The notes under the pieces are model-generated. The model searched no databases, was not told the DNA's origin, and worked only from the letters and a program-made list of their open reading frames with translations. A DNA stretch of 64,000 nucleotides. Source: Parcubacteria group bacterium M6-OD1-1. GTDB taxonomy: Bacteria; Patescibacteriota; Minisyncoccia; GWC2-36-17; M10-OD1-4. Positions 22,982 through 52,795 of this stretch are shown here, in pieces. Within the stretch, counting starts at the first letter, position 1. Each line of letters starts with the position of its first letter. The stretch lies in contig LSNK01000002.1 of NCBI GenBank assembly GCA_003056085.1, positions 110,575-174,574 of the forward strand, read 5' to 3'. Made by a program: the position numbers and the translations under genes.

Positions 22982-23180
22982 GCCAATATTATTAAAATTT
23001 ACGAGCTCAATGCGAAGTAAATTTTACTATAACATTGAGCACCTCTCATTTGGACTGATAAAAAACAATTTATAACTTTAAAATAAATAATATGTCTTTT
23101 TTACAAATCCAAGTGATGGATGAAGTTTTACTGCTGAATTTTATTCACCTAATGGCTTCAAGATTCAGATAAAGCCCTTA
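22982..23180 (-). repeat. intergenic structured element, R family copy 1 (core CATCACTTGG ... CCAAATGAGAGG); its 5' part is read through by the upstream GT4 gene
   Basis: Shares hairpins, the CCTCACTTGG/CCAAGTGAGG core and the GGTGCTCAATGTT box with five other copies (see findings). Confidence 0.6.
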
Positions 23181-24249
23181 TCTTTTCTTTAAATATTTTT
23201 TTATCAAAAGTTTTGGCATGATTTCTTATAAAATCAACATCAAAACTTAAATCTTTAAATCTGCTAACAGCATCTATGATGCTTTCTTCTGTTTGCTCTT
23301 TAAAAAAGATGCCTGTTTTTCCGGAAATAACAGTTTCCCGAGCCCCGCCGGCTTCAAAAGCTATAACAGGACGGCCTAATGCCATCGCCTCAAGCGGAAC
23401 AATGCCAAAATCCTCCTCTTGAGGAAAAATAAGGGCTTTTGCGTTTTGGTAATACTCTCTTAGTTTTTCGTCTTCAAGTGCTCCTAAAAATTCTATATTA
23501 TCACTCGCTATTTTTTCTAATTTTTTTCTTTCCGGACCGTTACCCACTATTTTTAAAGGCAGTCCTATTTTAGAAAAAGCCGTTATGGCAAGATCAAATT
23601 TTTTATAAGACAGAAGCCTTCCCACCATCAAAAAATAACTTCCTTTATTTTTTTTAGCGGAATTTTTTGAAAAATTGAATTTTAAAGTATCTACAGGCGG
23701 GTGAATCACCAATGCATCTTGTTTATAATATTTTTTTATCCTTTTTGCGACAAAGTTGGAATTTGCCAAATAAAAATCCGGCCTCTGAGAAGCTTGAAAA
23801 TCCCATGTTCTTATATATGTCATAAAATAAGGAATAAATTTTTTAACAAAGTCCGGAAATGGAAAATCTCTTATATATTTATGGGAGTCATCCCATGCGT
23901 ACCTTGTGGGAGTGTGGCAATAGCAAATATGCTTTGTTTTGGGAAGTGTTATAACTCCTTTGGCATAGGAGGCTGTATCTGAAATAACAAGATCATAGTC
24001 TGAAAGATCAAACTGCTCTATGGCAAGCGGCATTAAAACCAGAAAGCTTCGGTGTCTTTTTTTTGCAAAAGGAACTTTTTGCAAAAAAGAGGAATAAATC
24101 TTTCTTCCCGGAAATTTTTTTTCAATTAATTTTTCATCATAAATTAATGTATAAATGGGGGCATCCGGATAAATCTCACACAACGCCTCCAAAACACGCT
24201 CTGCTCCTCCGTATTGAGTTAGATAATCGTGAATTAAGGCTACTTTCAT
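23158..24249 (-). CDS. glycosyltransferase family 4
   Basis: MKVALIHDYLTQYGGAERV at the N-terminus and GT-B C-terminal EDFGIVPLEAMALGRPVIA. Confidence 0.75.
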   Translation of the reverse strand: MKVALIHDYLTQYGGAERVLEALCEIYPDAPIYTLIYDEKLIEKKFPGRKIYSSFLQKVPFAKKRHRSFLVLMPLAIEQFDLSDYDLVISDTASYAKGVITLPKTKHICYCHTPTRYAWDDSHKYIRDFPFPDFVKKFIPYFMTYIRTWDFQASQRPDFYLANSNFVAKRIKKYYKQDALVIHPPVDTLKFNFSKNSAKKNKGSYFLMVGRLLSYKKFDLAITAFSKIGLPLKIVGNGPERKKLEKIASDNIEFLGALEDEKLREYYQNAKALIFPQEEDFGIVPLEAMALGRPVIAFEAGGARETVISGKTGIFFKEQTEESIIDAVSRFKDLSFDVDFIRNHAKTFDKKIFKEKIRALSES

Positions 24250-24454
24250 ACTAATGTTGTTTTAATTATAAACAAGACTTAATGTTGGAAACAGTAACTA
24301 AATTACAACATTTAGCACCCCTCACTTGGACTAACAATTAAAAATTAAAACTTAATATTAACGCCAAAATCTTGCTTTAAAAACCAAGTGAGGGATTAAG
24401 GTTTTGCTCCCAAAATTTCAAGGCTTAGCCTTGAAATTTTGGGCAAAGCCCTTA
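24250..24454 (-). repeat. intergenic structured element, R family copy 2
   Basis: Minus strand TAA-GGGCTTTG, a 16 bp hairpin, AAAACCTTAATC, CCTCACTTGG, a 60 nt spacer, CCAAGTGAGG, GGTGCTAAATGTT. Confidence 0.6.
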
Positions 24455-25837
24455 ACATGCTGATTTATCTTTAAACAGAACAAGAATTGTTCTTAATAAT
24501 ATTTTTATATCCAAAAAAAGCGACCAATTTTCTATATAATAAACATCCAATTTTATTTCTTCTTCAAACGGCAAATCGGAAGACCCTGAAACTTGAGCCA
24601 TTCCTGTCATTCCTGATTTTATCGCAAGGACTTTTTTATGATGTTTTTCGTATTTTTCTATCTCGTCAGACTGGTGTGGTCTCGGTCCCACCAAGCTCAT
24701 ATCTCCTAAAAAAACATTAAAAAACTGAGGAAATTCATCTAACCTTGTTTTTCTTATAAACCTCCCTATTTTAGTAATTCTTGGATCTTCTTTCATCTTA
24801 AACAATGGACCGTCTTTTCTTTCATTTGCGCCTAAAAGGTCTTTTTTCATAAACTCTGCATCTTGAACCATTGACCTTAACTTTAAAAGATAAAATTCTT
24901 TATCTTGAGTAACCCTTTTTAACTTAACAAAAACAGGTCCTTTAGAATCCAATTTTATAATGATGCCCAAGATTAAAAAGATGGGGGAAAAAATAATAAT
25001 TCCAAACAAGGACCCGACTATATCCACCGATCTTTTTATAACTCTCCCCCAACCGTCTAAAGGAGTATATTTAATTTCCATTAAAGGAATACCAAAAAAA
25101 GTATTTATATTTATATTCGTAGCCAAAGCCTGAAAAACAGTCGGCGCAAATTTAAAATTCACCCTGTTTAGTTGGCAAAATTCAGCAAGATCAACCATGG
25201 CATTTGACGGATAGTCAGACTGCCCAACCACGACAGTATCTATATTTTTATCTTCTATTAATTTTTGAATATAATTTAGGTCAAAATTTGAAACTTTCAA
25301 AATAACATTATAGCCAAATTTAGGCTTTGACTTCATTTCATCTGCAAGTAAATTAGATATTTTATCACTCCCCACCATCAAAGTTCTTTGAGCTCCAAAA
25401 CCATATTTTTCAGTTAAGTGTTTTTCAATTTTTCTTAAAATAAATCTTCCTAAAGTAAGATAAAAAATTGAGAAAAATAAAATTGCCAAAATAATAAATC
25501 TGGAATCAAACTGCTCGCTTTGCAAAAAGATATATATAATAACAGCCATCATAGCCAAAGATGCTGCAGCGATAATTTGAAAAAATTCCTCCAATATATT
25601 TTTTCTATTTACTTTATAAAGCCCCAGTAATGCAAAAAGAAAAATCCAAAAAGGAATCACCACAATAACCAACATTATATATTTTTCAAACGGCAAGTTT
25701 TCAAAAAACAGCACAGGTCTTAATTGAGATACAAAATCACTGGTACGCAAAAAATAGGCGGAAACAGCCGCAAGAAAAAGCATGGCAAAATCAAGCGGAA
25801 CTAATATTACTGTAAAAAATAATGATGATTTCTTCAT
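24452..25837 (-). CDS. polyprenyl-phosphate sugar transferase (WbaP/exopolysaccharide priming glycosylphosphotransferase family)
   Basis: C-terminal bacterial sugar transferase domain with DEFPQFFNVFLGDMSLVGPRP; N-terminal transmembrane helices. Confidence 0.8.
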   Translation of the reverse strand: MKKSSLFFTVILVPLDFAMLFLAAVSAYFLRTSDFVSQLRPVLFFENLPFEKYIMLVIVVIPFWIFLFALLGLYKVNRKNILEEFFQIIAAASLAMMAVIIYIFLQSEQFDSRFIILAILFFSIFYLTLGRFILRKIEKHLTEKYGFGAQRTLMVGSDKISNLLADEMKSKPKFGYNVILKVSNFDLNYIQKLIEDKNIDTVVVGQSDYPSNAMVDLAEFCQLNRVNFKFAPTVFQALATNININTFFGIPLMEIKYTPLDGWGRVIKRSVDIVGSLFGIIIFSPIFLILGIIIKLDSKGPVFVKLKRVTQDKEFYLLKLRSMVQDAEFMKKDLLGANERKDGPLFKMKEDPRITKIGRFIRKTRLDEFPQFFNVFLGDMSLVGPRPHQSDEIEKYEKHHKKVLAIKSGMTGMAQVSGSSDLPFEEEIKLDVYYIENWSLFLDIKILLRTILVLFKDKSAC

Positions 25838-25904
25838 TTTGATGATATTTTGTTTATAAAGCTGTTGGAAAATTATATCCTTCTACAGTCTTATGATATA
25901 GAAT

Positions 25905-25945
25905 TTTACGCAAAATTAAAAGGGCGCCGTTTGGCGCCCTTTATG
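25905..25945 (-). terminator. intrinsic terminator (GGGCGCC-GTTT-GGCGCCC hairpin, then U-run on the minus strand)
   Basis: Forward AAAGGGCGCCGTTTGGCGCCCTTT preceded by AAAATTAAAA. Confidence 0.6.
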
Positions 25946-25952
25946 ACTCTGA

Positions 25953-26186
25953 CTATCCCGGTAAAACATCCGAGATTTGAGATAAAAAAATAGTAACGGG
26001 ACGACCTCCGTTTGTCATTCCTTTTTTGTTCCTGAAAAGAGGAGTTTGAAGTTGAGCCGATTCCAAAGTTACTCGGAGCACACAACCAACTACTTCACTC
26101 CCCTTAAGAAGAACCACTTTCACCATCTCGCCCTTCTTTGTCCTTTTCAGCTTATTGATTGCATCTTGATTTTCTTTACTTACCAT
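25953..26186 (-). CDS. hypothetical small protein
   Basis: 77 aa ORF followed by a strong terminator; no assignable family. Confidence 0.3.
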   Translation of the reverse strand: MVSKENQDAINKLKRTKKGEMVKVVLLKGSEVVGCVLRVTLESAQLQTPLFRNKKGMTNGGRPVTIFLSQISDVLPG

Positions 26187-26341
26187 TTGTCTTCTCCTCT
26201 GATATCCAATGCGTTATCGCTAAAAATAAACTATTTTAAAACCTCAATAGCTTGCTATTTTAACATAAAAATAAGCTCCTGACAACCCTATTAAAATCAA
26301 TTTTCCCCATAGGTGACACCTATGTGGAAAATAAAATTGGA

Positions 26342-26758
26342 TTATTTGTCTAATGCTTCATTTAATGCAGCATCTGCCTCTTTGTTGTATTCTCTTCTTA
26401 CATGTTCAAATGTCACTTTTTTAAAGTCTGTTTTTAGATTATGTATTTCTATAAAAAATTTCTGTATCTTTTCATCTTTCAATTTATAAACACCTGTCAA
26501 TTGTCTGAATGCAAGCTCAGAATCCATTTTCATATGAACTTCCACTTCTTTTGCTTTTTTCTTCCCCAAAAGCAGTTTTGCTTTTTCTAAAGCAAGAATT
26601 ATAGCTTTGTATTCCGCTTCATTGTTTGTTCCATGACCTATTTTTTCGCCATAAGTTTTAACAGTCTCCCCCTTCGCGTCTTTTATAACTATTCCTATCG
26701 CAGAAGGTCCCGGATTTCCCCTTGACCCGCCGTCTGTGTATATGGTTATTTTATTCAT
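26342..26758 (-). CDS. rnhA: ribonuclease HI
   Basis: IYTDGGSRGNPGPSAIG and NNEAEYKAI catalytic-site motifs. Confidence 0.8.
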   Translation of the reverse strand: MNKITIYTDGGSRGNPGPSAIGIVIKDAKGETVKTYGEKIGHGTNNEAEYKAIILALEKAKLLLGKKKAKEVEVHMKMDSELAFRQLTGVYKLKDEKIQKFFIEIHNLKTDFKKVTFEHVRREYNKEADAALNEALDK

Positions 26759-26862
26759 TGTTTTTAATTCTTGTCACTTATTATATTAATACATGTATAA
26801 TATAAAATTTAAGATAAAAATAAAAGAGGATGTTTTACAAACATCCTCTTTATAAAATCTTA

Positions 26863-27099
26863 TTAGTAAGATACTGTAAAATTGGAAGAATAAGCCCAAA
26901 ATATATGAAGAGTTACAATTTCATGCTCGCCTTCTCCACAAGCAAATCGCATTGTTACTTTCCCGCTTACTTCATTTATAGACGCAACCACCCCATAAAT
27001 ACTGTCGCCACCATCAAATCTAACAGATACATGACGACCAATGAGCTTCCTGAACAATTCCAACTTTTCATTGCGTATAGATTGACTTTCATCTGTCAT
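26863..27099 (-). CDS. hypothetical small protein (possibly Sm-like fold)
   Basis: 78 aa; segment LIGRHVSVRFDGGDSIYGVVASINEVSGKVTM resembles LSm/Hfq-like beta strands. Weak call. Confidence 0.25.
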   Translation of the reverse strand: MTDESQSIRNEKLELFRKLIGRHVSVRFDGGDSIYGVVASINEVSGKVTMRFACGEGEHEIVTLHIFWAYSSNFTVSY

Positions 27100-27179
27100 C
27101 TTAACTCTCCTTATACATTAAATAAAAATGTGCGATTATTAACTAAATAAATATAGCACATACATTTTTAAGGTGCAAA

Positions 27180-28931
27180 TTATTTTGTTAAGACTATATC
27201 CTTGAGTTTCAGTTGCAAGCTCTTATTTCCATTCCATTCATTTTCCTCTATTGTAAACACAATATTTATTTTATCGCCTTTTTTTAATTTTTCATAAAAT
27301 TCAGGAATTCCAAAACCGATAGCATCAAAAAATTTAATTTCTCCTTCTTTTAATTTTGCTTTCAAAGTAAGCTTTAAATGTTTGCTTCCGTTTCCAACCA
27401 ACCTCAAAGCCGCAATTTCGATATTTTCCATAGAAAATATCGGAGCATTATTACCTTGCCCGTAAGGCTCAAATTGAGAAAGCCAATTTGATATTTCCCA
27501 GTTGATATCATCCGGCAATATTTTATTTTCCACTCTTACAACAGGTATTTTCGGCTTATTTTTTAATTTTCCTTCTGAAATTTTTAAAATAAGTTTTTTA
27601 AAATCATTCATATTTTCTTCTGAAATAGAAAATCCTCCGGCTCCCGCATGACCGCCAAACGCCAAAAAAATATCTTTATTTTTTTTAGCACACTCTGACA
27701 TTGCCTCCACGATGTTAAATCCATCGACGCTTCTGCATGAACCTTTAAATATATTCCCTATTCTTCCGTACACAAAAGACGGCCTATTATATTTTTCTGT
27801 TAATCTGCTCGCCACAAGACCAACTATCCCAGGAGTCCAACCATTGTCTCCTATAACAATAACCTCTGGCACCCCTCCTTTTTCCGAAATATCTTTTTCC
27901 ATCCAAAAAATAGCATCTTTTACCGCCTTATCTACAAATTTTCTTCTGTCATTATTTGCTTTCTCAACCATTTCTATGAGTTTCTCCGCTATCTCTTCGT
28001 TGTCAGTTTCTAAAAGATCATATGAAACCGATGCGTGGGTCATTCTTGATGTCGCATTTATTTTCGGAGCTATTCTAAATGCAATCATATTTGCATCTAT
28101 ACCATTTCTAAGATTTCCTGCCCTATCCAGCAACTTTTTTAAACCAATTCTTTTTGTTTTTTTTACAACCTTAAGTCCATATTTTACCAATGTTCTATTC
28201 TCGCCTAAAAGCGGCATCATATCTGCAATTGTTGCTATGGTAACAACATCTAAAAGCCATTTTTCCGCCCCTTCTTTTATCCCTCTCTTTTTTCCAATCT
28301 CTGAACAAAAAAGAGCGGAACAAAATTTAAAGGCAACTCCCGCAGCGCAAAGATCTTTAAACTCATAACAACAATCTTTTTGTTTGGGGTTTACTATCGC
28401 ATGGGCCTTAGGCAGTTTCTCGCCGGGTAAATGATGATCAATTATTATCACGTCTGTTTCATTTTTATTTAAAAGATCAACCTCCTCTACATCATTTATT
28501 CCGCAATCCACCGTAATCAAAAGATCAACTCCTTTTTTTAAGATACTTTTAACGGCTTCTTTATTTAATCCATAGCCTTCTTTTTGTCTGTCCGGAGTAT
28601 AGGTTTCAAAATCAACCCCCAACTCTTTTAAAGCTGAAGCGACAACAATAGACCCGCAAACTCCATCCGCATCATAGTCATGATACACAACTATTTTTTC
28701 TTTATTTTCTATCGCTTTTATAAGTCTTTTGAGTGCTTTTTCCAACCCAAAAACCAAAAAAGGATCCTTTAGGTCCTTCTCATAATCCGGATTAAAAAAT
28801 TGCTTTGCTTCTATTTTCGTCTTTATCCCTCTATTGTATAAAAGCTGAACTACAACATCAGGATAATCATCTAATTCTTTTAAAATTTTATCCGGGGCTT
28901 TTTTTTGAATTTCCCAAATCTTCTCTTGCAT
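27180..28931 (-). CDS. recJ: single-stranded-DNA-specific exonuclease RecJ
   Basis: DHH motifs VVYHDYDADG and IIIDHH, plus DHHA1 region GGHAGAGG. Confidence 0.85.
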   Translation of the reverse strand: MQEKIWEIQKKAPDKILKELDDYPDVVVQLLYNRGIKTKIEAKQFFNPDYEKDLKDPFLVFGLEKALKRLIKAIENKEKIVVYHDYDADGVCGSIVVASALKELGVDFETYTPDRQKEGYGLNKEAVKSILKKGVDLLITVDCGINDVEEVDLLNKNETDVIIIDHHLPGEKLPKAHAIVNPKQKDCCYEFKDLCAAGVAFKFCSALFCSEIGKKRGIKEGAEKWLLDVVTIATIADMMPLLGENRTLVKYGLKVVKKTKRIGLKKLLDRAGNLRNGIDANMIAFRIAPKINATSRMTHASVSYDLLETDNEEIAEKLIEMVEKANNDRRKFVDKAVKDAIFWMEKDISEKGGVPEVIVIGDNGWTPGIVGLVASRLTEKYNRPSFVYGRIGNIFKGSCRSVDGFNIVEAMSECAKKNKDIFLAFGGHAGAGGFSISEENMNDFKKLILKISEGKLKNKPKIPVVRVENKILPDDINWEISNWLSQFEPYGQGNNAPIFSMENIEIAALRLVGNGSKHLKLTLKAKLKEGEIKFFDAIGFGIPEFYEKLKKGDKINIVFTIEENEWNGNKSLQLKLKDIVLTK

Positions 28932-28965
28932 AAATTAAAAATGAATAATTTTAAGTTTTTGTCCA

Positions 28966-30111: not shown

Positions 30112-30164
30112 ATAATTTCAATCTGATAGACTTATTACGAAATAAGTTGTGCAACAAATCTAAT

Positions 30165-33372: not shown

Positions 33373-33381
33373 TTTTTAAAA

Positions 33382-40599: not shown

Positions 40600-40678
40600 A
40601 AAAATAGTTATGAAGTCACAAAGTCAAAAAGTAGAAAATAAATTACGTCTAACTTTTTAACCTTTAACTTTTAACTTT

Positions 40679-41242: not shown

Positions 41243-41244
41243 AT

Positions 41245-41580: not shown

Positions 41581-41669
41581 ATTATCAATTAAAAGTCATA
41601 AAGTCCCAAATTATAAAGTTTTATGTAATTTACTTTTTAACTTTCAACTTTTTAACTTTCAACTTTTAC

Positions 41670-42212
41670 TTATGCTGCTGTTGCAGCTTTTTTACCTGCT
41701 TTTCTTCTTACTACTTCACCCTGATATCTTATACCCTTTCCTTTGTAAGGTTCTGGTTTCTTTAACTTTCTTATATTTGCAGCTGTTTGACCGACTAACA
41801 TCTTACTGATACCGGAAACCGTTATTGTATTTTTCTCGACTGCAAAACTAATTCCTTCCGGAGCTTCAATTTCAACAGGATGAGAAAATCCTAACGCCAT
41901 CACAAGCTTATTTCCCTGCAAGTCAACCTTAAAACCAACACCTTCAATTTCCAATTTCTTTTCATATCCTTTACTCACGCCATCTAACATATTTGCAATA
42001 AGAGATCTTGTAAGCCCCCAAAAAGCCGGGCCTCTTTTATCTTCTCCTAAAATAGAAACTAGAATTTGACTATCACTCATTTTAACATCCACAAAAGAAG
42101 CTTTTTTCATTGAAAGCTCGCCTTTTGGTCCTTTAGCAGTGATATTGTCTCCATTTATAGTTACTGTAATATCACTTCCTATTTCTATTGGTTGTTTTCC
42201 TACTCTGCTCAT
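41670..42212 (-). CDS. rplF: 50S ribosomal protein L6
   Basis: MSRVGKQPIEIGSDITVTI. Confidence 0.9.
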   Translation of the reverse strand: MSRVGKQPIEIGSDITVTINGDNITAKGPKGELSMKKASFVDVKMSDSQILVSILGEDKRGPAFWGLTRSLIANMLDGVSKGYEKKLEIEGVGFKVDLQGNKLVMALGFSHPVEIEAPEGISFAVEKNTITVSGISKMLVGQTAANIRKLKKPEPYKGKGIRYQGEVVRRKAGKKAATAA

Positions 42213-42427
42213 ACCAGTGTTGTTTTAATTATTTAATGAGACTCAATGTTGAGTGAAATAATTAAATTTCAACATTGAGCATCCCTCACTTGGATTAATA
42301 AAAGATAAATTATAAGTTTAAGTAAATAATATATCTTTTTTAAAAAACCCAAGTTAGGAGTAAGGTTTTCTATCCAAGTTTTTACTTCTGATTAACATCA
42401 GAACCAAAAACTTGGATAAAACTCTTA
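42213..42427 (-). repeat. intergenic structured element, R family copy 3, lying between rpsH and rplF
   Basis: Minus strand TAA-GAGTTTTA; hairpin TCCAAGTTTTTGGTTCTGAT-GTTA-ATCAGAAGTAAAAACTTGGA; AAAACCTTACTC; CTAACTTGG; 55 nt spacer; CCAAGTGAGG; GATGCTCAATGTTGA hairpin. Confidence 0.6.
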
Positions 42428-43142: not shown

Positions 43143-43694
43143 CTACTTTTTACTTTCAACCTTTAACGGAAATCCTAATAATCTAAATAATTTTTCTGCT
43201 TGTTTTTTGTCTTTACTGGATGTAACAACTGTAATCTGGAGTCCAAAAATACCTCTTGCATTTTCCTGATTAATTTCAGGAAATACGATTTGTTCACGAA
43301 TCCCTATGGTTAAATTCCCATTTTCATCAATATTTTTAAGCTCTAATCCTCTGAAATCTCTTGTTCTTGGAAGTGACACAGATACCAATCTATCAATAAA
43401 ATCATACATTTTTTCACCCCTTAGAGTAACTCTTACTCCAACATCCATACCTTCTCTTAATTTAAAAGCGGCGATTGATTTTTTTGCCTTTGCTTTCACG
43501 GCTTTCTGACCAGCAATAGCTGTGATGTCTTTTTCTATCGCATCCACCAAAGCTGTATCCTTTGCTACCCTTCCTGTCCCGCTGTTTAAAATAACTTTTT
43601 TAATCTTCGGCACCTGAAAATCATTTTTAAAACCAAACTCCTTTTTAAGCTGTTCTGTTATTTCTTTTTTGTATTTTTCCTTTAATCTGTTCAT
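43143..43694 (-). CDS. rplE: 50S ribosomal protein L5
   Basis: [12 protein letters not shown]...[22 protein letters not shown]. Confidence 0.9.
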
Positions 43695-43836
43695 AATAAC
43701 GAATCAAGAATCAAGAATTAAAAATCAAGTATTTTTACCGTTTAACTTAATTTATAATTTTTGCTTCTTATTTACTTCTCAAACTATTCTCGTAAAAAAT
43801 TATTCTCAGTCAATCTTATTTTTTCTTATTTCTCAA
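43695..43836 (-). repeat. intergenic repeat, S family copy 1 (between rplX and rplE)
   Basis: About 80 percent identical over ~95 nt to 44578-44716; contains AATCAAG tandem units. Confidence 0.55.
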
Positions 43837-44211: not shown

Positions 44212-44577
44212 CTAAATTACTTCCGGTGCAAGCGATGTCAATTTCAGATAACCTCTTTCTTTCAACTCTCTTGGAATCGGACCAAAAACACGCCCTCCTT
44301 TTATATCTTTTCCATCCAGCACAACAGCTGCGTTTTCGTCAAACCTGATATAAGAACCGTCTTTTCTTCTGAAAGTCTTTTTTTGCCTCACAATAACAGC
44401 CTTAACAACATCTGATTTTTTTACAGCTTTCCTCGGTTCAGCAGACTTTACAGCAGCAACTATAATATCCCCAATCTGGGCATATCTTCTTTTTGACCCA
44501 CCTAAAACCTTTATGCATTGGATCTTTTTTGCGCCGCTGTTATCGGCTATTTTTAACATTGTTTGTACTTGAATCAT
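44212..44577 (-). CDS. rplN: 50S ribosomal protein L14
   Basis: [28 protein letters not shown]. Confidence 0.9.
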
Positions 44578-44716
44578 AATAATGAATTAAGAATCAAGAA
44601 TTAAAAATCAAGTATTTTATCGTTTAACTTAATTTATAATTTTTGATCCTTACTTCTTGTTTATTTTTTAAACTATTTCCTGCTTCGTAAATACTTTTAT
44701 ATAAATCTACACCTAA
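44578..44716 (-). repeat. intergenic repeat, S family copy 2 (between rpsQ and rplN)
   Basis: Homologous to 43695-43836. Confidence 0.55.
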
Positions 44717-45243: not shown

Positions 45244-45247
45244 ATTA

Positions 45248-45664: not shown

Positions 45665-45738
45665 AAGTTCATTATAATAAGTTATAAAGTGTAAAAGCTT
45701 AATATAACTTACTTTTAACTTGATAACTTCTTACTTTT

Positions 45739-46419: not shown

Positions 46420-46421
46420 AA

Positions 46422-46904
46422 CTATTTATCTTTTTTATTAATCTGCTTCTTATCTTCTTTTTTAACCGACTTTTTCACCTTCTTGTCTGTTACTTCTTCA
46501 GTCTTTTCTTTACTATTGTCAATTTCTTTATCTAATTTATTTTTTTCCTTCTTTTCTTTCGGTTCGGTTTTTTCTTTATCTTCCAATACCAAAGTTATAT
46601 GAGAAGTTCTTTTTCTTATATGAAAAGCCCTCCCCATAGCTCTTGGCATAATTCTTTTTAAAGTCGGACCTTCATTTACAAATAACTCTGAAATATATAA
46701 ATCTGACTCTTTCAACTTAAAATTATGTTCTGCATTTGCGATTGCAGAATTTAAAAGCTTAAGCATACTCTTTGAAGATCTTTTAATCAAAAAATGAAGT
46801 TGGTGTTTTGCGTCCGCAACATCAAGACCCCTCACCAAATCTGCTACTAATCTGACTTTTCTTGGTGAAATTCTTAAGTTGTTCAACTTCGCTTTTACCT
46901 TCAT
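46422..46904 (-). CDS. rplV: 50S ribosomal protein L22 with Lys/Glu-rich C-terminal tail
   Basis: RISPRKVRLVADLVRGLDVADAKHQLHF. Confidence 0.9.
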   Translation of the reverse strand: MKVKAKLNNLRISPRKVRLVADLVRGLDVADAKHQLHFLIKRSSKSMLKLLNSAIANAEHNFKLKESDLYISELFVNEGPTLKRIMPRAMGRAFHIRKRTSHITLVLEDKEKTEPKEKKEKNKLDKEIDNSKEKTEEVTDKKVKKSVKKEDKKQINKKDK

Positions 46905-47077
46905 GAAAATATTATTTTAATTATTTAACGAAACTCAATTTGGATTAATAAAAGACAAGTTATAAGTTTAAGTAAATAATATGTCTTTTTTTACAAACCC
47001 AATTGAGAGGTAAGTTTTTTTATCCAAGTTTTTACTTCCGATTAACATCGGAATCAAAAACTTGGATAAAACCCTTA
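46905..47077 (-). repeat. intergenic structured element, R family copy 4, lying between rpsS and rplV
   Basis: Same architecture as copy 3, but core arms changed to CTCAATTGG / CCAAATTGAG. Hairpin 1 carries CCGAT/ATCGG instead of CTGAT/ATCAG. Confidence 0.6.
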
Positions 47078-47353: not shown

Positions 47354-47375
47354 TTTTTTACTTTTTACTTTTTAA

Positions 47376-48212: not shown

Positions 48213-48493
48213 AATAATAAATTTTTATTTTTCTAAAAACTAATCTGTTTGAGTGTAATTTAAGAAAAAAGCGAGGAGTGAAACGAAAATGTACTTATTG
48301 GGTACATTGAGTAAACTCAATATGAAATGAATTTTACTATAATATTGAGTACTCCTCACTTAGACCTACAAAAAATAAATTACGAAATCTACATACATAA
48401 TATATTCTTTACAAACCCAAGTGAGGAATAAGGTTTGCTAACCAAATTTTTACCTCCGATAAATCGGAAATAAAAATTTGGAGCAAGCCCTTA
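48213..48493 (-). repeat. intergenic structured element, R family copy 5 (longest, 278 nt), lying between rplW and rplB
   Basis: Minus strand TAA-GGGCTTGCT; hairpin CCAAATTTTTA...TAAAAATTTGG; AAACCTTATTC; CTCACTTGG; spacer; CTAAGTGAGG; AGTACTCAATATT hairpin. An extra GTGAGGAGT/ACTCCTCGC pair lies in the 3' tail. Confidence 0.6.
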
Positions 48494-48904
48494 TACTCCT
48501 ATATCTATTTTATCTCCATCCTTTAATGTAACTATCGCTTTTTTAAAACCTGGCTTTCTTCCTTGATGCGCTCCAAGTCTGACTTTCTTGCTTGCCGTAT
48601 TAATGATAGCCACATTTATCACCGTAACATCATAAATACTTTCCACTGTATTTCTAACATCAATCTTATTTACTGCATCCAAAACTTTAAAAACATATTT
48701 ATTTTCCTGACCCATCATAGCGGTTTTTTCTGTTATATACGGCGCTTTAAGGATATTATAATACACAAAATCAGCTGCCTTTGCAATAGCTTTTTTTTCA
48801 GTTTTAGGCTGGTCAACTTTGGACTGATCTTTTTTCTGCACTTCCAAATCCTTTGTGCTATCGTCCTTTTTTACTGTTTTTTTTAATTTATCTAAAATTG
48901 TCAT
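48491..48904 (-). CDS. rplW: 50S ribosomal protein L23 with N-terminal extension
   Basis: YYNILKAPYITEKTAMMGQENKYVFKV. Confidence 0.85.
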   Translation of the reverse strand: MTILDKLKKTVKKDDSTKDLEVQKKDQSKVDQPKTEKKAIAKAADFVYYNILKAPYITEKTAMMGQENKYVFKVLDAVNKIDVRNTVESIYDVTVINVAIINTASKKVRLGAHQGRKPGFKKAIVTLKDGDKIDIGV

Positions 48905-48905
48905 T

Positions 48906-49577
48906 TTATTTATCAGATTTACTATGTAATTTAGTGTATGTATTTTTTATAACTTCAACAGAATCTTTAAGTATTACTGTATATTTATAATTTAAAACAT
49001 CTACAACATTCAAACTATCTGCGTTTATAACCTTAACTGTTTGAATATTTCTAAAAGACAACTGCAACTCTCTATCTGCCTTTGGTAATATTACCAAAGT
49101 TTTTTTATTGCCCTTTGCGTTAAAAATCTTGTCTGTCATAACATCCAAAAAATCATCAGCATCTTTTGTTTTAATACCGGAAAATGACAAGCTATTCACC
49201 ACGACCATCTCTTTATCAGTTAACTTTGAAGTTAATGCCATAAACAATGCTTTTTGTTTCTGTTTCTTATTTATATTTTTTGAAAAATTTCTATCACTTC
49301 TTGGCCCAAAAGTTATTCCACCGCCAATCCATAAAGGAGATCTTATGGAGCCGTGCCTTGCTCTACCTGTTCCTTTTTGTTTCCACGGCTTTGCTCCTCC
49401 ACCTCTTACTTCTCCTCTTGTTTTTGTATGAGCAACGGCAATTCTTGCATTAGCCTCTTGAGCTACATATGTCTGATGAATCAAATTAGAATTTAATTTA
49501 ACTCCGAAAATCTCTTCCGGCAAATTAATCTTACCTGACTTTTCCCCTTTTTGATTGTATGCGTCAATACTTAACAT
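48906..49577 (-). CDS. rplD: 50S ribosomal protein L4
   Basis: KPWKQKGTGRARHGSIRSPLWIGGGITFGP. Confidence 0.9.
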   Translation of the reverse strand: MLSIDAYNQKGEKSGKINLPEEIFGVKLNSNLIHQTYVAQEANARIAVAHTKTRGEVRGGGAKPWKQKGTGRARHGSIRSPLWIGGGITFGPRSDRNFSKNINKKQKQKALFMALTSKLTDKEMVVVNSLSFSGIKTKDADDFLDVMTDKIFNAKGNKKTLVILPKADRELQLSFRNIQTVKVINADSLNVVDVLNYKYTVILKDSVEVIKNTYTKLHSKSDK

Positions 49578-49600
49578 AACTTATAATTTTATAAATATAA

Positions 49601-50236
49601 TTATTTTTTTTCACTTACTATTTCAAGAAGCGTTCCTCTTCTCCCCGGAAGAGCTCCGGAAATTGCCAAAATACCATTTTCTGCATCAACTTTAACAACT
49701 TTAAGTCCTTTAACAAAAACCCTATCAGAACCCATTCTTCCTGCCATCCTTTTTCCTTTAAACACTTTCTGAGGACCTAATGCTCCAATAGAACCTGGGG
49801 ATCTTAAAGAATGTTTTTGACCATGACTTGCAGGACCACCTTTAAAATTATATCTTTTTACAACTCCTTGAAATCCCTTACCTTTTGAAATCCCCGTTAC
49901 GGTAACATCCTCACCTTCTTCAAAGACAGAAGCGTCTATTTTGTCTCCAACTTTATACTCTTTGGCGTCAATTTTAAATTCTTTAAGCACCCTGCAATTT
50001 CCAAGACTTTTAGACAAATGACCTTTTTCCGGTTTATTAAATTTCTTTTTTTCACCCATACCGATTTGAACAGCCTCATATCCGTCTTTATCTTCCATTC
50101 TTATTTGGGTAACTGTACATGAAAAAACTTCCACCAAGGTTACAGGAACAACTTTGTTGTCTTCATCAAAAATTTGAGTCATATTTAATTTTTTCCCTAA
50201 AATAAATTTCATATTCTTTAACAAAAAAATGAGCAA
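49601..50236 (-). CDS. rplC: 50S ribosomal protein L3 (true start probably MKFILGKK at ~50212)
   Basis: ILGKKLNMTQIFDEDNKVVPVTLVEV. Confidence 0.9.
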   Translation of the reverse strand: MLIFLLKNMKFILGKKLNMTQIFDEDNKVVPVTLVEVFSCTVTQIRMEDKDGYEAVQIGMGEKKKFNKPEKGHLSKSLGNCRVLKEFKIDAKEYKVGDKIDASVFEEGEDVTVTGISKGKGFQGVVKRYNFKGGPASHGQKHSLRSPGSIGALGPQKVFKGKRMAGRMGSDRVFVKGLKVVKVDAENGILAISGALPGRRGTLLEIVSEKK

Positions 50237-50367
50237 AGCTCATTTTCAAATAAACCTTGTTTTTTAAATAATTATTTTAAATTATAATTATATTGTTTTT
50301 CATAAATTACAAGTGATTCTGTAATCTAGAAAACCTATGTAACTTTAAAATCCAACAATAAACCTTT

Positions 50368-50694
50368 TTAAATCATTTTGATCTCAATATCAACACCTGC
50401 TGGAAGACTAAGATTTGTTAAAGCATCAATCGTCTTTGCGCTTGGACTTAAAATATCAACAATTCTTTTGTGAATCCTCATCTCGTAATGATCTCCCGCA
50501 CTTCTGTGAACAAATGTTGACCTTCCAACTGCATACCTTTTTGTTTCGGTTGGCAAAGGCACCGGACCTGAAATGTCACCACCTTGTCTTTCTGCAGCTT
50601 CAACAATCTGACGCGCGCTGTTATCAATAATCTTATTGTCATACGCCCTGATTTTTATTCTCAATTTTTGAATTTGTTCTTCTTTTTTTGACAT
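50368..50694 (-). CDS. rpsJ: 30S ribosomal protein S10
   Basis: KLRIKIRAYDNKIIDNSARQIVEAAERQGGDISGPVPLPTE. Confidence 0.9.
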   Translation of the reverse strand: MSKKEEQIQKLRIKIRAYDNKIIDNSARQIVEAAERQGGDISGPVPLPTETKRYAVGRSTFVHRSAGDHYEMRIHKRIVDILSPSAKTIDALTNLSLPAGVDIEIKMI

Positions 50695-50769
50695 TTTAAT
50701 CTCAAATTTATTATTTAATAACGAGTTTATGAAAGCATCTCCTAAAAGGGAGATGCTTTCATAAATAAT

Positions 50770-51963
50770 TTAAACTGAAATTTTCAGCACAACACCTGCT
50801 CCAACAGTTTTCCCACCTTCTCTGATAGCAAATCTTTGTTGTTCTTCAAGAGCAACCGGTGTAATTAGTTTAACTTTAACTTTAACAGTATCTCCTGGCA
50901 TAACCATTTCTGTTCCTTCAGGAAGCGTAATGTCTCCTGTTACGTCTGTTGTTCTGATATAAAATTGTGGTTTATATCCTGTGAAAAATGGTGAATGTCT
51001 TCCTCCTTCTTCCTTTGTAAGAATATAAATCTCAGCATCAAATTCAGTATGCGGAGTAACAGAACCGGCTTTTGCAAGAACTTGACCTCTTTCAATTTCC
51101 TCTTTTTTAATACCACGAAGCAAAAGTCCCGCATTATCTCCAGCAATAGCAGAATCAAGGCTCTTATTGAACATTTCAACTCCTGTGACAATCACTTTTC
51201 TTGTATCTTTAATACCAACAAGTTCAATTTCTTCATTTACCTTAACCTCACCTCTTTCTACTCTACCGGTTACAACCGTACCTCTACCTTCAATTGAGAA
51301 AATATCCTCAACAGGCATAAGAAATGGTTTGTCAGTCTCTCTTACAGGATCCGGAATCCACTCATCACAAGCTTTCATAACTTCAAGAATTTTTTTAACA
51401 TTTTCCCCATCAACTGTTTTTTCTTCCAAAGCTTTAACTGATGAACCTCTGATAAATGGAGTATTTTCTCCATCATATCCGTATTTTGTTAAAAGCTCTC
51501 TAATTTCTTCTTCAACCAAGTCAACAAGTTCCGGATCGTCTGCTAAGTCCATTTTATTTAGATAAACAACAATAGAAGGAACTCCAACTTGTTTTGCAAG
51601 CAAAATATGCTCTCTTGTTTGAGGCATCGGACCGTCCGGAGCCGCAACAACTAAAATTGCGCCATCCATTTGAGCGGCACCTGTGATCATATTTTTTATA
51701 TAATCAGCATGCCCGGGAGCATCAATATGAGCATAGTGTCTTTTTTCTGTTTCATATTCAGAATGATGAAGAGCGATAGTAATACCTCTTTCTCTTTCTT
51801 CCGGAGCTGTGTCTATCTGGTCAATAGACTCAACTCTTGCCTTTTGTCCGGCAAGATTCAACGAATGCAAAATTGCAGCCGTTGTTGTTGTTTTCCCATG
51901 ATCAACATGGCCAATTGTGCCGATGTTAACATGCGGTTTTGTGCGTTCAAATTTTTCTGCCAT
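50770..51963 (-). CDS. tuf: elongation factor Tu
   Basis: [21 protein letters not shown]; 397 aa. Confidence 0.95.
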
Positions 51964-52226
51964 ATTTTTATTTAATATATAGAGTGAGTTAACAATTAAG
52001 CTTGAAATTACTGGGGTTCATCAGAACCAATAATTTAAAGCCTACTGCCAATTCAATCCGCAAATTAATTATTTTTTATTTTTTAATTAAAAACTTAATA
52101 AAAGATTTCAATATTTTAATCTAAAAAACCAACAAAGTCAAGACCAAAACAGTTGAAAACTTGGAAATTATAAGGTTTTACATAACTTACCTTCTACTCT
52201 TAGCTTTCATGCTTCATAACTTTTGA

Positions 52227-52598
52227 CTAAAACGGCAAATCTTCTAACTTAACTTCTTTTAAATCTTTCTTTATTTTTTCCACCTCATGATAACCTTCAA
52301 ATTGATTTTTAAGCTCAATCTCCCTTGATTTTACTATCTTTTCTCTGTTTATCTTAAGCTCATCTTCTATGACGCTGTGAATTGCATCTATATCATTATC
52401 ATGAAATTCAGTCTCTTTTTTAAAAAAATCTTCATTAAATCCATCCGAATCATCCAATAGATAATCACTCTCTATGGTTTTTTTCATATTTCTCGTATAG
52501 TCCTCAAAAGGAACCACAACATAGGATGGCTTTCCATCTTCCATAACAACTATACCTTTTTTAGATACATCCAATACCTTTTTTATATCATCAAGCAT
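52227..52598 (-). CDS. hypothetical acidic protein located between fusA and tuf
   Basis: 123 aa, Asp/Glu-rich; no motif. Good ORF context with an R-family element upstream. Confidence 0.35.
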   Translation of the reverse strand: MLDDIKKVLDVSKKGIVVMEDGKPSYVVVPFEDYTRNMKKTIESDYLLDDSDGFNEDFFKKETEFHDNDIDAIHSVIEDELKINREKIVKSREIELKNQFEGYHEVEKIKKDLKEVKLEDLPF

Positions 52599-52795
52599 GT
52601 TAATGTTATTAAAATTTACGAGCTCAATGCGAAGTAAATTTTACCATAACATTGAGTACCCCTCACTTGGATCATTAAAAAATAAATTACAACCTCTTGA
52701 AGCAAGTACTGTGTTTTTTATAACCCAAGTGAGAGGTAAGGTTTTGTTGCTGAATTTTAAAACCTTTAAGCTTCAAAATTCAGACAAAGCCCTTA
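52599..52795 (-). repeat. intergenic structured element, R family copy 6 (fusA stop codon to the 52598 gene)
   Basis: 3' ~75 nt nearly identical to copy 1. Core CCTCTCACTTGG / CCAAGTGAGGGG. Confidence 0.6.

Follow-up and report, generated by a model that had tools for sequence, protein, structure and literature searches.

In the 64-kb stretch of DNA analysed here (the window), which comes from a candidate-phyla-radiation (CPR) bacterium, a ~200-base repeat with three hairpins occurs in six copies, each of which fills the gap between two genes from the TAA of one to the ATG of the next. All six copies (c1, 22982-23180; c2, 24250-24454; c3, 42213-42427; c4, 46905-47077; c5, 48213-48493; c6, 52599-52795) lie on the minus strand, which is the coding strand here, and are in the sense orientation relative to the flanking genes. 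They cluster in ribosomal-protein and exopolysaccharide operons: c1 and c2 are flanked by genes for GT4 glycosyltransferases and a sugar phosphotransferase, c3 separates S8 from L6, c4 S19 from L22, c5 L23 from L2, and c6 fusA from a 123-aa ORF. The coordinates and single orientation given in the original prediction agree with both our alignment and an nhmmer profile, and its flanking genes were identified correctly. Its account of the GT4 gene upstream of c1, which was said to have lost the in-frame TAA and to read on into the element, needed correction: the TAA is one base out of frame, and the gene ends at 23158-23160. The parts of each copy (hairpins P1, P2 and P3), a related spacer and a nearby transposase locus are positioned as follows.

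23121-23180, minus strand: c1 P1; TAA at 23178-23180, out of frame with the GT4 gene
23042-23120, minus strand: c1 P2; arms CATCACTTGG / CCAAATGAGA
22981-23041, minus strand: c1 P3; TGCTCAATGTTAT pairs with ATAATATTGGCA, and the final A (22981) is the A of the ATG (22979-22981)
24397-24454, minus strand: c2 P1; TAA is the stop of the sugar phosphotransferase gene
24318-24396, minus strand: c2 P2; CCCTCACTTGG ... CCAAGTGAGGGG
24249-24317, minus strand: c2 P3; TGCTAAATGTTGT pairs with ACAACATTAGTA, with compensated changes at the base
42361-42427, minus strand: c3 P1; TAA is the S8 stop
42282-42360, minus strand: c3 P2; CTCCTAACTTGG ... CCAAGTGAGGGA
42212-42281, minus strand: c3 P3; ends at the ATG of L6
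47011-47077, minus strand: c4 P1; TAA is the S19 stop
46940-47010, minus strand: c4 P2; truncated by a 42-nt deletion
46904-46939, minus strand: c4 P3/tail remnant; 5' arm lost, decayed, ends at the ATG of L22
48429-48493, minus strand: c5 P1; TAA is the L23 stop
48352-48428, minus strand: c5 P2
48212-48351, minus strand: c5 P3 region; rearranged by a ~75-80 nt insertion with a second ACTCAATG box, ends at the ATG of L2
52737-52795, minus strand: c6 P1; TAA is the fusA stop
52659-52736, minus strand: c6 P2
52598-52658, minus strand: c6 P3; basal pairs degenerate, ends at the ATG of the 123-aa ORF
54966-55072, minus strand: S7|fusA spacer; Z-like box GAAAATTGGCAC at 55061-55072 and X-like box GTACTCAATTTTG at 54966-54978
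60347-61024, minus strand: Y1 (HUH) transposase of the IS200/RAYT type, 225 aa; Pfam PF01797 at 31.7 bits (cutoff 23)
61047-61075, no strand assigned: palindrome upstream of the Y1 gene; CTTACTTAGGGG ttcaa CCCCTAAGTAAG
60814-60842, no strand assigned: in-frame palindrome within the Y1 ORF, encoding QLRGSTPKLV
60532-60560, no strand assigned: second in-frame palindrome within the Y1 ORF, encoding QLRGATPKLV
60306-60333, no strand assigned: palindrome directly downstream of the Y1 gene

The nhmmer profile built from c1-c6 recovered only these six full copies in the window, with E-values from 2e-48 to 2e-29; the remaining matches were noise at E>1 and weak opposite-strand matches on the copies themselves, as expected from their palindromic sequence. 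The core 10-mer occurs 10 times in the window at no more than one mismatch, against an expectation of 1.6. No further copies were found at 1-22 kb or 53-64 kb of the window or in the 7.5 kb past its edge. No Rfam family matched, and relaxing the threshold to E<=5 brought up generic hairpin noise alone, in line with the earlier view that the repeat is not assignable to a named family.

In the family consensus, the three hairpins abut one another with linkers of 0-1 nt. The basal pairs of P1, TAAGG/CCTTA, take in the upstream TAA stop codon; the first hairpin described earlier therefore exists but had been drawn too short. The middle hairpin, P2, is swappable: in this genome it consists of two inverted copies of a 12-nt motif, in the manner of a REPIN, and at least four unrelated hairpin types occupy its slot across the family. 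P3 is a long helix; the last four bases of its 3' strand, GGCA, are invariant in the family, and the A of this GGCA is usually the A of the downstream ATG. The box TGCTCAATnTT has the tail ACAAnATTGGCA beside the ATG as its partner throughout the family, and the nearby CATTGAGC as a partner in the window-type subfamily only; the minimum-free-energy fold of c1 adopts the long-range box-tail pairing. Thus, the local third hairpin proposed for this box is confined to one subfamily, and what had been called a variable tail is the conserved 3' strand of P3.

We examined covariation in an alignment of 15-18 family members from several genomes, using 500 shuffles and slid-register controls. Standard pairs made up 95% of the P1 cells, with double changes at 12 pairs, a level reached by none of the 500 shuffles, and 92% of the P3 cells were paired, with double changes at 4 pairs; in the slid registers, only 29-62% were paired. 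The covariation of P1 and P3 supports selection on secondary structure, and this claim, made originally from the six copies, thus holds in the enlarged alignment. The TAA was paired in 17-18 of 18 sequences. On both strands, the copies are far more stably folded than shuffled sequences (z between about -7 and -9), and a copy from another genome (L126) is predicted to fold as three abutting hairpins with z = -11.6. All three compensatory changes quoted previously are present in the sequences, but the one in the core, CTCAATTGG/CCAAATTGAG, is the junction of the c4 deletion.

Three of the copies are decaying, c4 by this 42-nt deletion, which took out one arm each of P2 (3') and P3 (5'), c5 by its insertion and c6 by its degenerate base. 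A C>A change in the 5' arm of c4 P2 improves pairing at the deletion junction. Pairwise identity within the genome reaches 89% over 139 nt for c3 and c4 and 86% over 98 nt for c1 and c6. The S7|fusA spacer, suspected to be a decayed seventh copy, turned out to hold a related box pair in reversed order relative to P3, AAAATTGGCAC then GTACTCAATTTTG, which is also kept in a relative (L093).

In seven Azambacteria-like relatives (L088, L090-L093, L140 and L141), the L23|L2, S19|L22 and S8|L6 spacers are only 2-22 nt long, and the stop and start codons are unchanged. The orthologous junctions are thus empty sites in all seven, indicating that the copies at the three ribosomal-protein junctions are lineage-specific gains. 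Among these relatives, only L093 carries the element at fusA|ORF, where its P1 differs in sequence from that of c6 and its P2 is unrelated. Copies within this genome resemble each other more closely than do those that share a junction across genomes. Other Parcubacteria have unrelated junctions occupied (S4|rpoA, rpoA|L17, L32|nusB, x|recR, x|S6 and pilin clusters), and the copies there are co-directional with the genes in every case. The copy starts with the in-frame stop of an upstream ORF of at least 50 codons in 17 of 20 copies (51 codons in L131), and of 15 distinct junctions, about 9 have TG directly after GGCA, which completes the start codon. No gene precedes the L110/L114 copy, and the next start codon is 35-130 nt away from the L018a and L101 copies. 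P3 and the tail share ~94% identity across genomes in which the ribosomal proteins match at just 50-90%; so close a likeness is more suggestive of functional constraint or horizontal transfer than of neutral selfish DNA.

P2 also occurs by itself. The window-type P2 (CCCCTCACTTGG...CCAAGTGAGGGG) is solitary at ~45 loci in CPR genomes, among them sites within the genes for 16S rRNA, 23S rRNA and RNase P RNA, and others immediately upstream of tRNA genes, abutting +1. We take the rRNA sites to be helix tips, including the classical helix-25 intervening-sequence region, by reference to E. coli, and those in RNase P RNA likewise to be helix tips. Only the 12-bp arms are conserved in these solitary copies, around a variable, AT-rich interior, and exact direct repeats of 6-13 nt flank 9 of 43 of them, compared with 0 of 43 in the control.

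The Y1 transposase gene lies ~7.5 kb from c6. It is a single-copy, RAYT-like gene whose synteny is kept in three strains of another species, and its product scored 29.8 bits against the NCBIfam model for REP-associated tyrosine transposases, under the cutoff of 80. With more than 1369 homologues in Patescibacteria, this family is found in very many Parcubacteria, so its presence near the repeat is not a specific association. The palindrome arm at the transposase, CCAACTTAGGGG, agrees with the P2 arm CCAAGTGAGGGG in 10 of its 12 bases. With up to two mismatches allowed, it is found 12 times in the window, compared with 2.5 expected by chance; 7 of these sites belong to the transposase locus, 3 are in P2 arms and 2 lie elsewhere. 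These arms are related but not identical, and the topology is opposed, arm-loop-arm in the Y1 palindromes and arm-50 nt-arm in P2. No similarity to the Y1 palindromes was found in P1 or P3.

Elements of comparable kinds are known from several bacteria. REP, REPIN and BIME elements with their RAYT (Y1) transposases have been described in E. coli and Pseudomonas (PMC2817692, PMC3116915, PMC5581495). They too are extragenic palindromic units arranged in mosaics, between co-transcribed genes and directly after stop codons; P2, as an inverted doublet of a short motif forming a hairpin, resembles a REPIN, and a single-copy RAYT-like gene flanked by palindromes with a related motif is also shared. 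In contrast, the units of the window element are much longer (~60-80 nt each, ~200 nt in total), lack a GTAG or CGTC tag and run exactly from stop to start, with TAA and the A of ATG in basal pairs; P1 and P3 are unrelated to the transposase-flanking palindrome, and the transposase ORF holds two in-frame copies of its own palindrome. IS608 and ISDra2 are models for the mechanism of IS200/IS605-type single-stranded-DNA transposition, for which the known targets are 4-5 nt. IS200/IS605-derived non-autonomous elements (PATEs; see PMC6006769) share with our repeat the subterminal hairpins at both ends, the lack of target-site duplication, a fixed short 5'-flank sequence (here TAA) that pairs with an internal sequence, and a single orientation on the lagging-strand template strand. 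However, the hairpins here begin at the extreme ends, TAA is shorter than those targets, no parent insertion sequence with P1/P3 ends was found, and a 3' end abutting a start codon is not predicted by the mechanism.

Short insertions that lack ORFs have been reported in CPR rRNA genes, and many uncharacterised ones of <200 bp have been likened to intervening sequences, in a study that contains no description of the P2 motif (PMC11270868). The solitary P2 copies inside 23S and 16S rRNA genes resemble these insertions and the intervening sequences that RNase III excises, whereas P2 also occurs in RNase P RNA and tRNA leaders and forms, in the window, the middle unit of a larger element between protein-coding genes. 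Transcribed MITE-like repeats include Correia in Neisseria, ERIC/IRU in enterobacteria, BOX and RUP in pneumococcus and RPE in Rickettsia. The likeness to BOX, Correia and RPE that had been noted before is a fair analogy: these repeats are likewise 100-200 nt long, strongly folded, multi-copy, co-transcribed with their neighbours and patchy among relatives, but the window element is dissimilar in sequence, strictly sense, codon-bounded and modular with three hairpins, and has no TA or other target duplication.

Taken together, we consider that there is about an even chance that the six copies reflect the spread within the lineage of a mosaic, non-autonomous palindromic element of REP/BIME or IS200-derived PATE type. 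The newly gathered evidence favours mobility, and the arguments for it are the empty sites, the intragenomic likeness, the decayed copies, the modular P2 and the nearby RAYT-like gene. We found no consistent target-site duplication around the composite. All copies lie on the G-rich (leading-strand-sequence) strand, each end has a subterminal hairpin, and an internal TTA is the pairing partner of the flanking TAA; these features and the lack of duplication are compatible with IS200/IS605-type single-stranded-DNA transposition. Against mobility, neither a transposition event nor an insertion polymorphism between strains was observed, simple insertion 3' of TAA leaves the loss of the native spacer before the ATG at 6/6 junctions unexplained, and the copies are concentrated in ribosomal-protein and exopolysaccharide operons.

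A second explanation, which we think unlikely, is that of a dedicated cis-acting element of operon mRNA for translation or RNA processing, whose P1 has the stop codon at its foot and whose P3 has the start codon at its foot, and that spread via duplication or recombination because it is useful. It might couple termination to reinitiation over a looped-out spacer, occlude positions -12 to +1 of the next cistron through P3 with the alternative X-Y pairing as a switch, or punctuate polycistronic RNA endonucleolytically into stable units. In the last respect, the intercistronic RNase III processing hairpins of phage T7 early mRNA and the tRNA punctuation of mitochondria are also repeated structured elements exactly between cistrons of polycistronic RNA; this would be a functional analogy only, and the window element is dispensable in relatives. 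The stop and start codon boundaries in most of ~20 copies from several genomes, the paired TAA, the GGCA followed by TG, the invariably sense orientation, the conserved P3 and tail, and the location in essential, highly expressed operons all argue for such a role, although the L110/L114, L018a and L101 copies depart from these boundaries and the seven relatives have no such element at the corresponding junctions. A Shine-Dalgarno sequence is absent from most genes here, and structure at the start codon should therefore matter. Against such a role, parts of P3 are missing in c4, c5 and c6 despite essential downstream genes. The X-Y pairing of the window-type subfamily persists in diverged copies, the P2 change in c4 restored pairing after the deletion, and other enlarged spacers of the same operon contain hairpins that fold well in the sense strand only (z -4.1 vs -2.3, -5.4 vs -1.2 and -3.4 vs -1.4). 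The sense strand of 6/6 copies is also more stable than the opposite one by 4-11 kcal/mol, with ~2x the G-U pairs, but GC skew can account for much of this: the two strands fold about equally once composition is controlled. Also against such a role, P1 and P3 contain G-U cells about as often as A-C cells.

The other explanations are far weaker. A classical MITE mobilised by a DDE transposase, with terminal inverted repeats, a target-site duplication of fixed length and a parent insertion sequence sharing its ends, is improbable. P2 does have 12-bp terminal inverted repeats around its AT-rich interior, and direct repeats flank some solitary copies; however, these vary in length and accompany only 9 of the 43, terminal inverted repeats and a target-site duplication are both absent from the composite, no long element with P2 ends was found among the loci examined, and strict sense orientation is unexpected. 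Self-cleaving ribozymes are often multi-copy and intergenic, and the strong covarying structure would suit an independent small RNA or ribozyme gene; this is nonetheless highly improbable given the Rfam result, conservation in stems and helix feet rather than an unpaired core, and boundaries set by codons and not by a promoter or terminator. Least probable is a repeated module that terminates transcription of the upstream gene and promotes that of the next, for which the intergenic position and -10-like AT-rich hexamers in the tail (e.g. TATAAT in c2) speak, since promoter-like sites number 55 against 52.4 expected from shuffled sequence and fall in c3 and c4 only, at differing positions, no U-tract was found after the element hairpins on the sense strand, and covarying stems of at least 20 bp with a swappable middle hairpin exceed what a promoter needs.

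In the mobile-element reading, we infer that the repeat would be copied as single-stranded DNA and inserted immediately 3' of TAA, the presumed insertion target. The mobilising enzyme, acting in trans, would most likely be the RAYT-like HUH/Y1 transposase at 60347-61024, whose palindromes share the P2 arm motif. Copies would persist only between co-directional genes in the sense orientation, where they would be co-transcribed, and any effect of the element at the RNA level is likewise part of the proposal. We propose that the compact three-helix fold holds the upstream stop and the downstream start at the feet of neighbouring helices, so that expression of the essential L2, L22 and L6 would not be abolished; in addition, the hairpins may serve as sites of RNase III-type processing or of stabilisation. 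Most likely, the element is co-transcribed inside operons and tolerated even in essential ones.

The window was predicted to carry six copies of one element in a shared orientation, and this was indeed borne out. A profile built from the six recovered exactly those six in the 64 kb (E 2e-48 to 2e-29); its other matches were noise and weak opposite-strand ones at the same six loci, which are attributable to palindromic DNA. All six align full-length on the minus strand, and the core 10-mer is six-fold over-represented in the window. The copies, c1 to c6, are as follows.

22982-23180, minus strand: c1, with two GT4 glycosyltransferases and an exopolysaccharide (EPS) sugar phosphotransferase as neighbours
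24250-24454, minus strand: c2, with the same neighbours
42213-42427, minus strand: c3, at the S8-L6 junction
46905-47077, minus strand: c4, at the S19-L22 junction, with a 42-nt deletion
48213-48493, minus strand: c5, at the L23-L2 junction, with an insertion of ~75-80 nt in the 3' part
52599-52795, minus strand: c6, at the junction of fusA and a 123-aa ORF

The repeat is real and beyond chance. In the 64 kb together with 7.5 kb of one flank, the six copies are clustered, and the flanking 7.5 kb is devoid of them. Every copy has TAA at its 5' end and the ATG of the next gene at its 3' end. As predicted, the gene upstream of c1 has lost its in-frame TAA, which lies one base out of frame. Identity is 89% over 139 nt between c3 and c4, and 86% over 98 nt between c1 and c6. 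The window is AT-rich (~32% GC) with nearly all genes on the minus strand, and the plus-strand GC skew of -0.16 to -0.30 throughout means that the gene strand is G-rich, leading-strand sequence. A Shine-Dalgarno motif is absent from most window genes, whose upstream regions are AT-rich. The 123-aa ORF (52227-52598, minus strand), with fusA on one side and tuf on the other, matches nothing in Pfam or NCBIfam; all relatives have an ORF of 100-122 aa at this position, with 45-79% identity. L23 (48491-48904, minus strand; 137 aa) has an N-terminal extension of ~47 aa compared with the family model, and similar extensions are found in relatives (119-139 aa).

Each copy consists of three abutting hairpins, namely P1 on the stop-codon side, a swappable P2 in the middle and P3 on the start-codon side. 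The predicted structural covariation was confirmed in P1, where standard pairs fill 95.4% of cells (18 sequences) and both-sided changes occur at 12 of the 19 pairs; none of 500 shuffles reached the observed values, and slid-register controls paired at 30-62% only. The basal three pairs of P1 join TAA with TTA. The long-range stem of P3 is paired in 92% of cells (15 sequences, interior removed) versus only 29-52% in slid-register controls, with double changes at four pairs (for example CAAT/ATTG, CGAT/ATCG and CGGT/ATCG). This stem is present in the minimum-free-energy folds of c1 and of the copy at L126, a locus from another genome; in the L126 fold the three hairpins abut, with only 0-1 nt between them (z = -11.6). 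A third hairpin proposed earlier, GCTCAATG...CATTGAGC, holds for the window-type subfamily (c1, c3, c5, c6 and the copies at L093, L126 and L131) but not family-wide. It lies within the P3 loop, where it competes with the long-range stem, and may be an alternative conformation. The P1 profile was matched by the reverse complement of P3, and on this sequence evidence P1 and P3 are related palindromic units. A switch in which the P1 3'-strand ACAAAA and P3 compete for TTTTGT was dropped, the complementarity being good, by eye, only at L047, L110 and L131. On either strand the copies fold well beyond the level of shuffled sequences. Sense-strand folds are more stable by 4-11 kcal/mol and have 43 G-U pairs versus 19 on the opposite strand, but composition-controlled z-scores of the strands are nearly equal and the sense strand is G-rich, so the strand comparison does not tell an RNA element from a single-stranded DNA one.

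By its L2 protein the window belongs among Candidatus Azambacteria-like Parcubacteria. The operon was compared in seven relatives, which are at roughly equal distance, with ribosomal-protein identities of ~50-90%. The check for empty sites was positive: at L23-L2, S19-L22 and S8-L6 all seven have spacers of 2-22 nt without the element, bounded by the same stop and start codons. The fusA-ORF junction is empty in six of the seven. The seventh, L093, has a homologous element there, with a different P1, an unrelated, shorter and GC-rich P2, and a 3' part ~94% identical to c1. The window copies resemble one another more than the same-junction copy of another genome. Because the junctions are empty in relatives, we regard the window copies as gains; the alternative, that they are survivors of repeated loss, is much less parsimonious. 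An apparent insertion polymorphism among strains L142-L144 was rejected as a poly-G/N assembly artefact.

Scans of species-representative genomes with the P2 arms and of metagenomes with the P2-flanking boxes revealed further full elements at L047/L134, L018 (two), L101, L102, L103, L110 (with identical copies in L114 and L136), L120 (two), L126 and L131. The consensus is [TAA/TAG] GGGCTTTGTCTAAAATTT - loop - AAATTTTAGAnACAAAACCTTA for P1, CC - variable hairpin - GG for P2, and TGCTCAATnTTGTAG - variable inner hairpin(s) - ACAAnATTGGCA for P3, usually followed by TG, so that the last A of P3 opens the start codon. At least four unrelated types of hairpin are seen in the P2 position of different elements. 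Occupied junctions include S4-rpoA, rpoA-L17, L32-nusB, those preceding recR and S6, and type IV pilin clusters, and every family copy is co-directional with the genes. TAA, also the usual stop codon, is on the 5' flank in 20 of 20 copies, and in 17 of them the copy start is the in-frame stop of an upstream ORF 50 or more codons long (51 at L131); the exceptions are c1, out of frame, and L110/L114, where there is no upstream gene. The 3' terminus is GGCA in all 15 sequences, with TG next at about nine distinct junctions, and a native-looking spacer 3' of the element occurs only in L120b (6 nt), L018a (35 nt) and L101 (~130 nt). At L047:2759-3000 and L134:925-1170, an ATG in the P2 loop starts an ORF that continues in frame across P2 and P3 and joins a type IV pilin (...KTKSAG/FTLVEL); judging by this reading frame, the prepilin leader may be encoded partly by the element.

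The window-type P2, in which the 12-bp arms CCCCTCACTTGG and CCAAGTGAGGGG enclose ~50 nt of AT-rich sequence, is an inverted doublet of a 12-nt motif and also occurs alone. Such free P2 hairpins are conserved in their arms only. Three extra C/G pairs that the search pattern does not demand are found in ~45 of the 86 genome matches; these ~45 come from CPR/Patescibacteria or unclassified MAGs, bar a few labelled otherwise, perhaps through mis-binning. Their contexts were assigned by Rfam and ARAGORN, except for one RNase P RNA assigned by eye.

16S rRNA: L043, L036 (twice) and L082
23S rRNA: L039 and L024
RNase P RNA: L015, L027 and L041, and by eye L045
ITS: L028
At or within 3 nt of tRNA position +1: L001, L008, L026, L066 and L081

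On the tRNA side, a duplicate of the first 9-11 nt of the tRNA precedes the hairpin, the left junction being GTAG/CCCC. L001 and L007 each hold a tandem pair; a CRISPR-like reading of tandem P2 by tRNAs was rejected, with interiors conserved between copies in some genomes and arrays of two units only. By comparison with E. coli rRNA, the L043 16S insertion replaces helix 6, and the L039 23S site lies in the helix-25 region, the classical intervening-sequence site. An rRNA intervening sequence takes the place of a helix tip and is excised by RNase III; the free P2 copies of 16S and 23S genes lie at helix-tip positions by the E. coli comparison, and the window copies are outside rRNA. Exact flanking direct repeats of 6-13 nt accompany 9 of 43 free P2 copies versus none of 43 in a shifted control; since their length varies and they are absent in rRNA and RNase P contexts, a fixed target-site duplication is unlikely. 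CPR rRNA genes are known to carry many uncharacterised ORF-less insertions of <200 bp, which have been likened to RNase III intervening sequences, and the P2 motif is not described in the survey that notes them (PMC11270868).

A candidate source of transposase activity lies in the same window.

60347-61024, minus strand: gene of a 225-aa Y1/HUH transposase (Pfam Y1_Tnp 31.7 bits, cutoff 23)

The protein has an HYH motif and scores 29.8 bits with the NCBIfam RAYT model, below the cutoff of 80. Its locus (60306-61075, minus strand) contains four palindrome copies with the arm CCAACTTAGGGG, one before the gene, one after it and two within the ORF and in frame with it, where they encode QLRGxTPKLV (QL(G/R)GxTPKL when L142-L144 are included). 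The family has >1369 members of ~220 aa across Parcubacteria, and in every homologue inspected (~70) the two peptide motifs vary together, and each Y1 gene therefore seems to carry its own cognate repeat copies. The four-palindrome layout recurs at L142-L144:9953-10688 in three strains of another species, where the gene is single-copy and syntenic, a pattern of RAYT behaviour (PMC5581495). The sequence link between this gene and the element is suggestive only. The Y1 and P2 arms agree at 10 of 12 positions; at ≤2 mismatches the Y1 arm has 12 window sites (7 in its own locus, 3 in P2 arms and 2 others) versus 2.5 expected. The topologies are opposed, arm-loop-arm in the Y1 palindrome versus arm-50 nt-arm in P2, and P1 and P3 are unrelated to the Y1 palindrome. 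A parent insertion sequence sharing the element's ends was seen neither in the window nor in the collected loci, none of those loci has an autonomous element with P2 ends, and tblastn of the Y1 protein against those loci gave no match. Viral contigs scanned for P2 and the scaffold gave 0 matches, hence no sign of a phage vector.

Other spacers of the window are also enlarged. A second spacer-filling family, D1 (40600-40678, 41581-41669, 45665-45738 and 4332-4404; AAAGTTAAAAAGT... / ...ACTTTTTAACTTT), lies between S5-L15, L6-L18 and S3-L16 and forms long AU-rich hairpins, which fold well on the sense strand only (z -4.1 vs -2.3, -5.4 vs -1.2 and -3.4 vs -1.4). Two 96%-identical copies of a 45-nt repeat (43691-43735 and 44574-44618) adjoin the start codons of L5 and L14, and the repeat is part of a larger hairpin of the S17-L14 spacer (z -4.7). 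The tuf-S10 spacer holds a perfect 17-bp hairpin without a U-tract (50726-50765, minus strand; z -6.9), at a junction where L088 has 4 nt, and the S12-S7 spacer (55522-55625) holds three tandem 28-nt repeats that have Shine-Dalgarno-like AAGGAA/AGGGAA on the coding strand and are predicted to be unstructured. In the 186-nt S7-fusA spacer (54896-55081, minus strand), GC-rich hairpins lie between AAAATTGGCAC and GTACTCAATTTTG, both of which are kept in L093; this spacer may be a structured leader related to P3 with reversed strand order. L093 itself has a different repeat at L23-L2, S14-S8 and S8-L6 (L093:9839-10000, 14856-14988 and 15382-15495), the common 3' part of which, ...TTTTCATTTTAAATTTAGCGAAGCGAAT, terminates exactly at ATG. 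The window also contains a direct repeat of 145 nt (3287-3431 and 10593-10737; 88% identical, 7.3 kb apart). As for the attenuator suggested at rplC, the hairpin ATGAGC-TTT-GCTCAT followed by T7 is present (50222-50247, minus strand), ~10 nt upstream of the ATG called as the rplC start in other assemblies, but a consensus terminator scan did not flag it.

Taken together, these data best fit a non-autonomous mosaic palindromic element, either of the REP/BIME kind (PMC2817692, PMC3116915) or a PATE derived from IS200/IS605, and we best class it as a REP/BIME- or MITE-like structured intergenic repeat. From the comparison of sequences, the best fit is that it proliferated in the lineage of the window and is co-transcribed within operons. 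Like REP, REPIN and BIME, it is made of palindromic units, three abutting per copy with P2 an inverted doublet. REP palindromes have a conserved GTAG or CGTC tag at one end (PMC3733652), whereas the window copies lack such a tag beside P1, P2 or P3, and GTAG precedes free P2 only when the tetranucleotide belongs to the 5' end of a tRNA. REP-type repeats number tens to hundreds per genome, against the six clustered copies in the sequence covered here. In REP/RAYT systems the RAYT gene is flanked by the repeat itself; the Y1 gene here has flanking palindromes, but with the 10/12 arm, the different topology, no relation to P1 or P3, and the RAYT score below cutoff. The hairpins, the lack of a target-site duplication, the TAA flank and the single G-rich strand would fit a PATE, but the orientation is confounded with gene direction and TAA is a common stop codon in any case; unlike a PATE with its parent, the element has a P1 and a P3 that differ from the end palindromes of the Y1 gene. 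A Y1 single-stranded DNA mechanism of the IS608/ISDra2 type would give insertion 3' of TAA, hairpins at both ends, a single strand, no target-site duplication, and pairing of the flanking TAA with an internal TTA. Unusual in this element are its codon-to-codon boundaries, a modular hairpin common to insertions in rRNA, RNase P RNA and tRNA leaders, and a RAYT family nearby with in-frame copies of its own palindrome.

Several features do not sit well with plain selfish DNA. The fit from stop to start codon is exact, with a spacer remnant at none of the six window junctions; P3 and its tail are near-identical between distant genomes; and the copies are concentrated in ribosomal-protein and EPS operons. 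These misfits, the general absence of Shine-Dalgarno sequences in the window and the hairpins that other enlarged spacers of this operon form specifically on the sense strand keep alive a second explanation, that of a functional mRNA element that would couple translation, occlude the start codon or serve as processing 'punctuation'. Both readings could hold at once, as the element may be mobile and persist only at sites where its fold leaves both neighbours expressed.

The remaining alternatives are poorly supported. The element is structurally constrained, as an sRNA or ribozyme would be, but it fits no curated RNA family: Rfam gathering matches in the window are two tRNAs and a DUF3800-V RNA, all away from the elements, and relaxing the search to E≤5 brings up, for the elements, only miRNA-precursor hairpin models with scores well under the threshold. 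That DUF3800-V RNA (RF02964, 75.6 bits; 18653-18748, plus strand) lies on the strand opposite the surrounding genes. A DDE-type MITE has terminal inverted repeats and a target-site duplication of fixed length; the composite element lacks both, and free P2 has inverted ends but flanking repeats that vary from 6 to 13 nt and accompany only 9 of 43 copies. GGCTTTGT may resemble the IS903 inverted repeat, a similarity given no weight here. Literature searches returned unrelated primer matches only for the motif string and nothing relevant on MITEs in Patescibacteria. As for a promoter/terminator module, promoter-like sites in the copies are at background frequency and at positions that are not conserved, and there is no terminator-like site except a chance match overlapping the L23 end. 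The likeness to a boxA-like antitermination site (TGCTC...) extends over 5 nt only.

There is also a bolder reading, which we consider unlikely: a mobile insert self-neutralised by its fold, with the P2 insertion system remodelling CPR RNA genes via the RAYT. Three stacked helices would put the upstream UAA beside the downstream AUG at the helix feet, and terminating ribosomes could then reinitiate on the next cistron across ~200 looped-out nt; alternatively, an endonuclease could cut at the helix feet, freeing a near-leaderless downstream mRNA. Such an insert would amount to a bacterial version of mitochondrial 'punctuation' and, in terms of RNA topology, to an analogue of self-splicing. Across CPR, this P2 system would also remodel rRNA, RNase P RNA and tRNA leaders, its driver being a RAYT family that bears its recognition palindrome in frame.

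The genomes of CPR/Patescibacteria are deemed streamlined, yet here structured inserts of ~200 nt are found in the S10, spc and str ribosomal-protein operons. They belong to a previously undescribed element family across Parcubacteria, with an architecture from stop codon to start codon, which is tied to the unexplained short insertions of CPR rRNA genes, extends these to RNase P RNA and tRNA leaders, and has a RAYT-like Y1 transposase as its candidate enzyme. For CPR lineages, the inserts and free P2 affect gene calling, the designing of primers, and searches for rRNA and RNase P RNA. If the element is neutral only through its fold, it would show how mobile DNA can colonise essential operons; if it has a function, this would be a novel mode of intercistronic control among organisms mostly without Shine-Dalgarno sequences.
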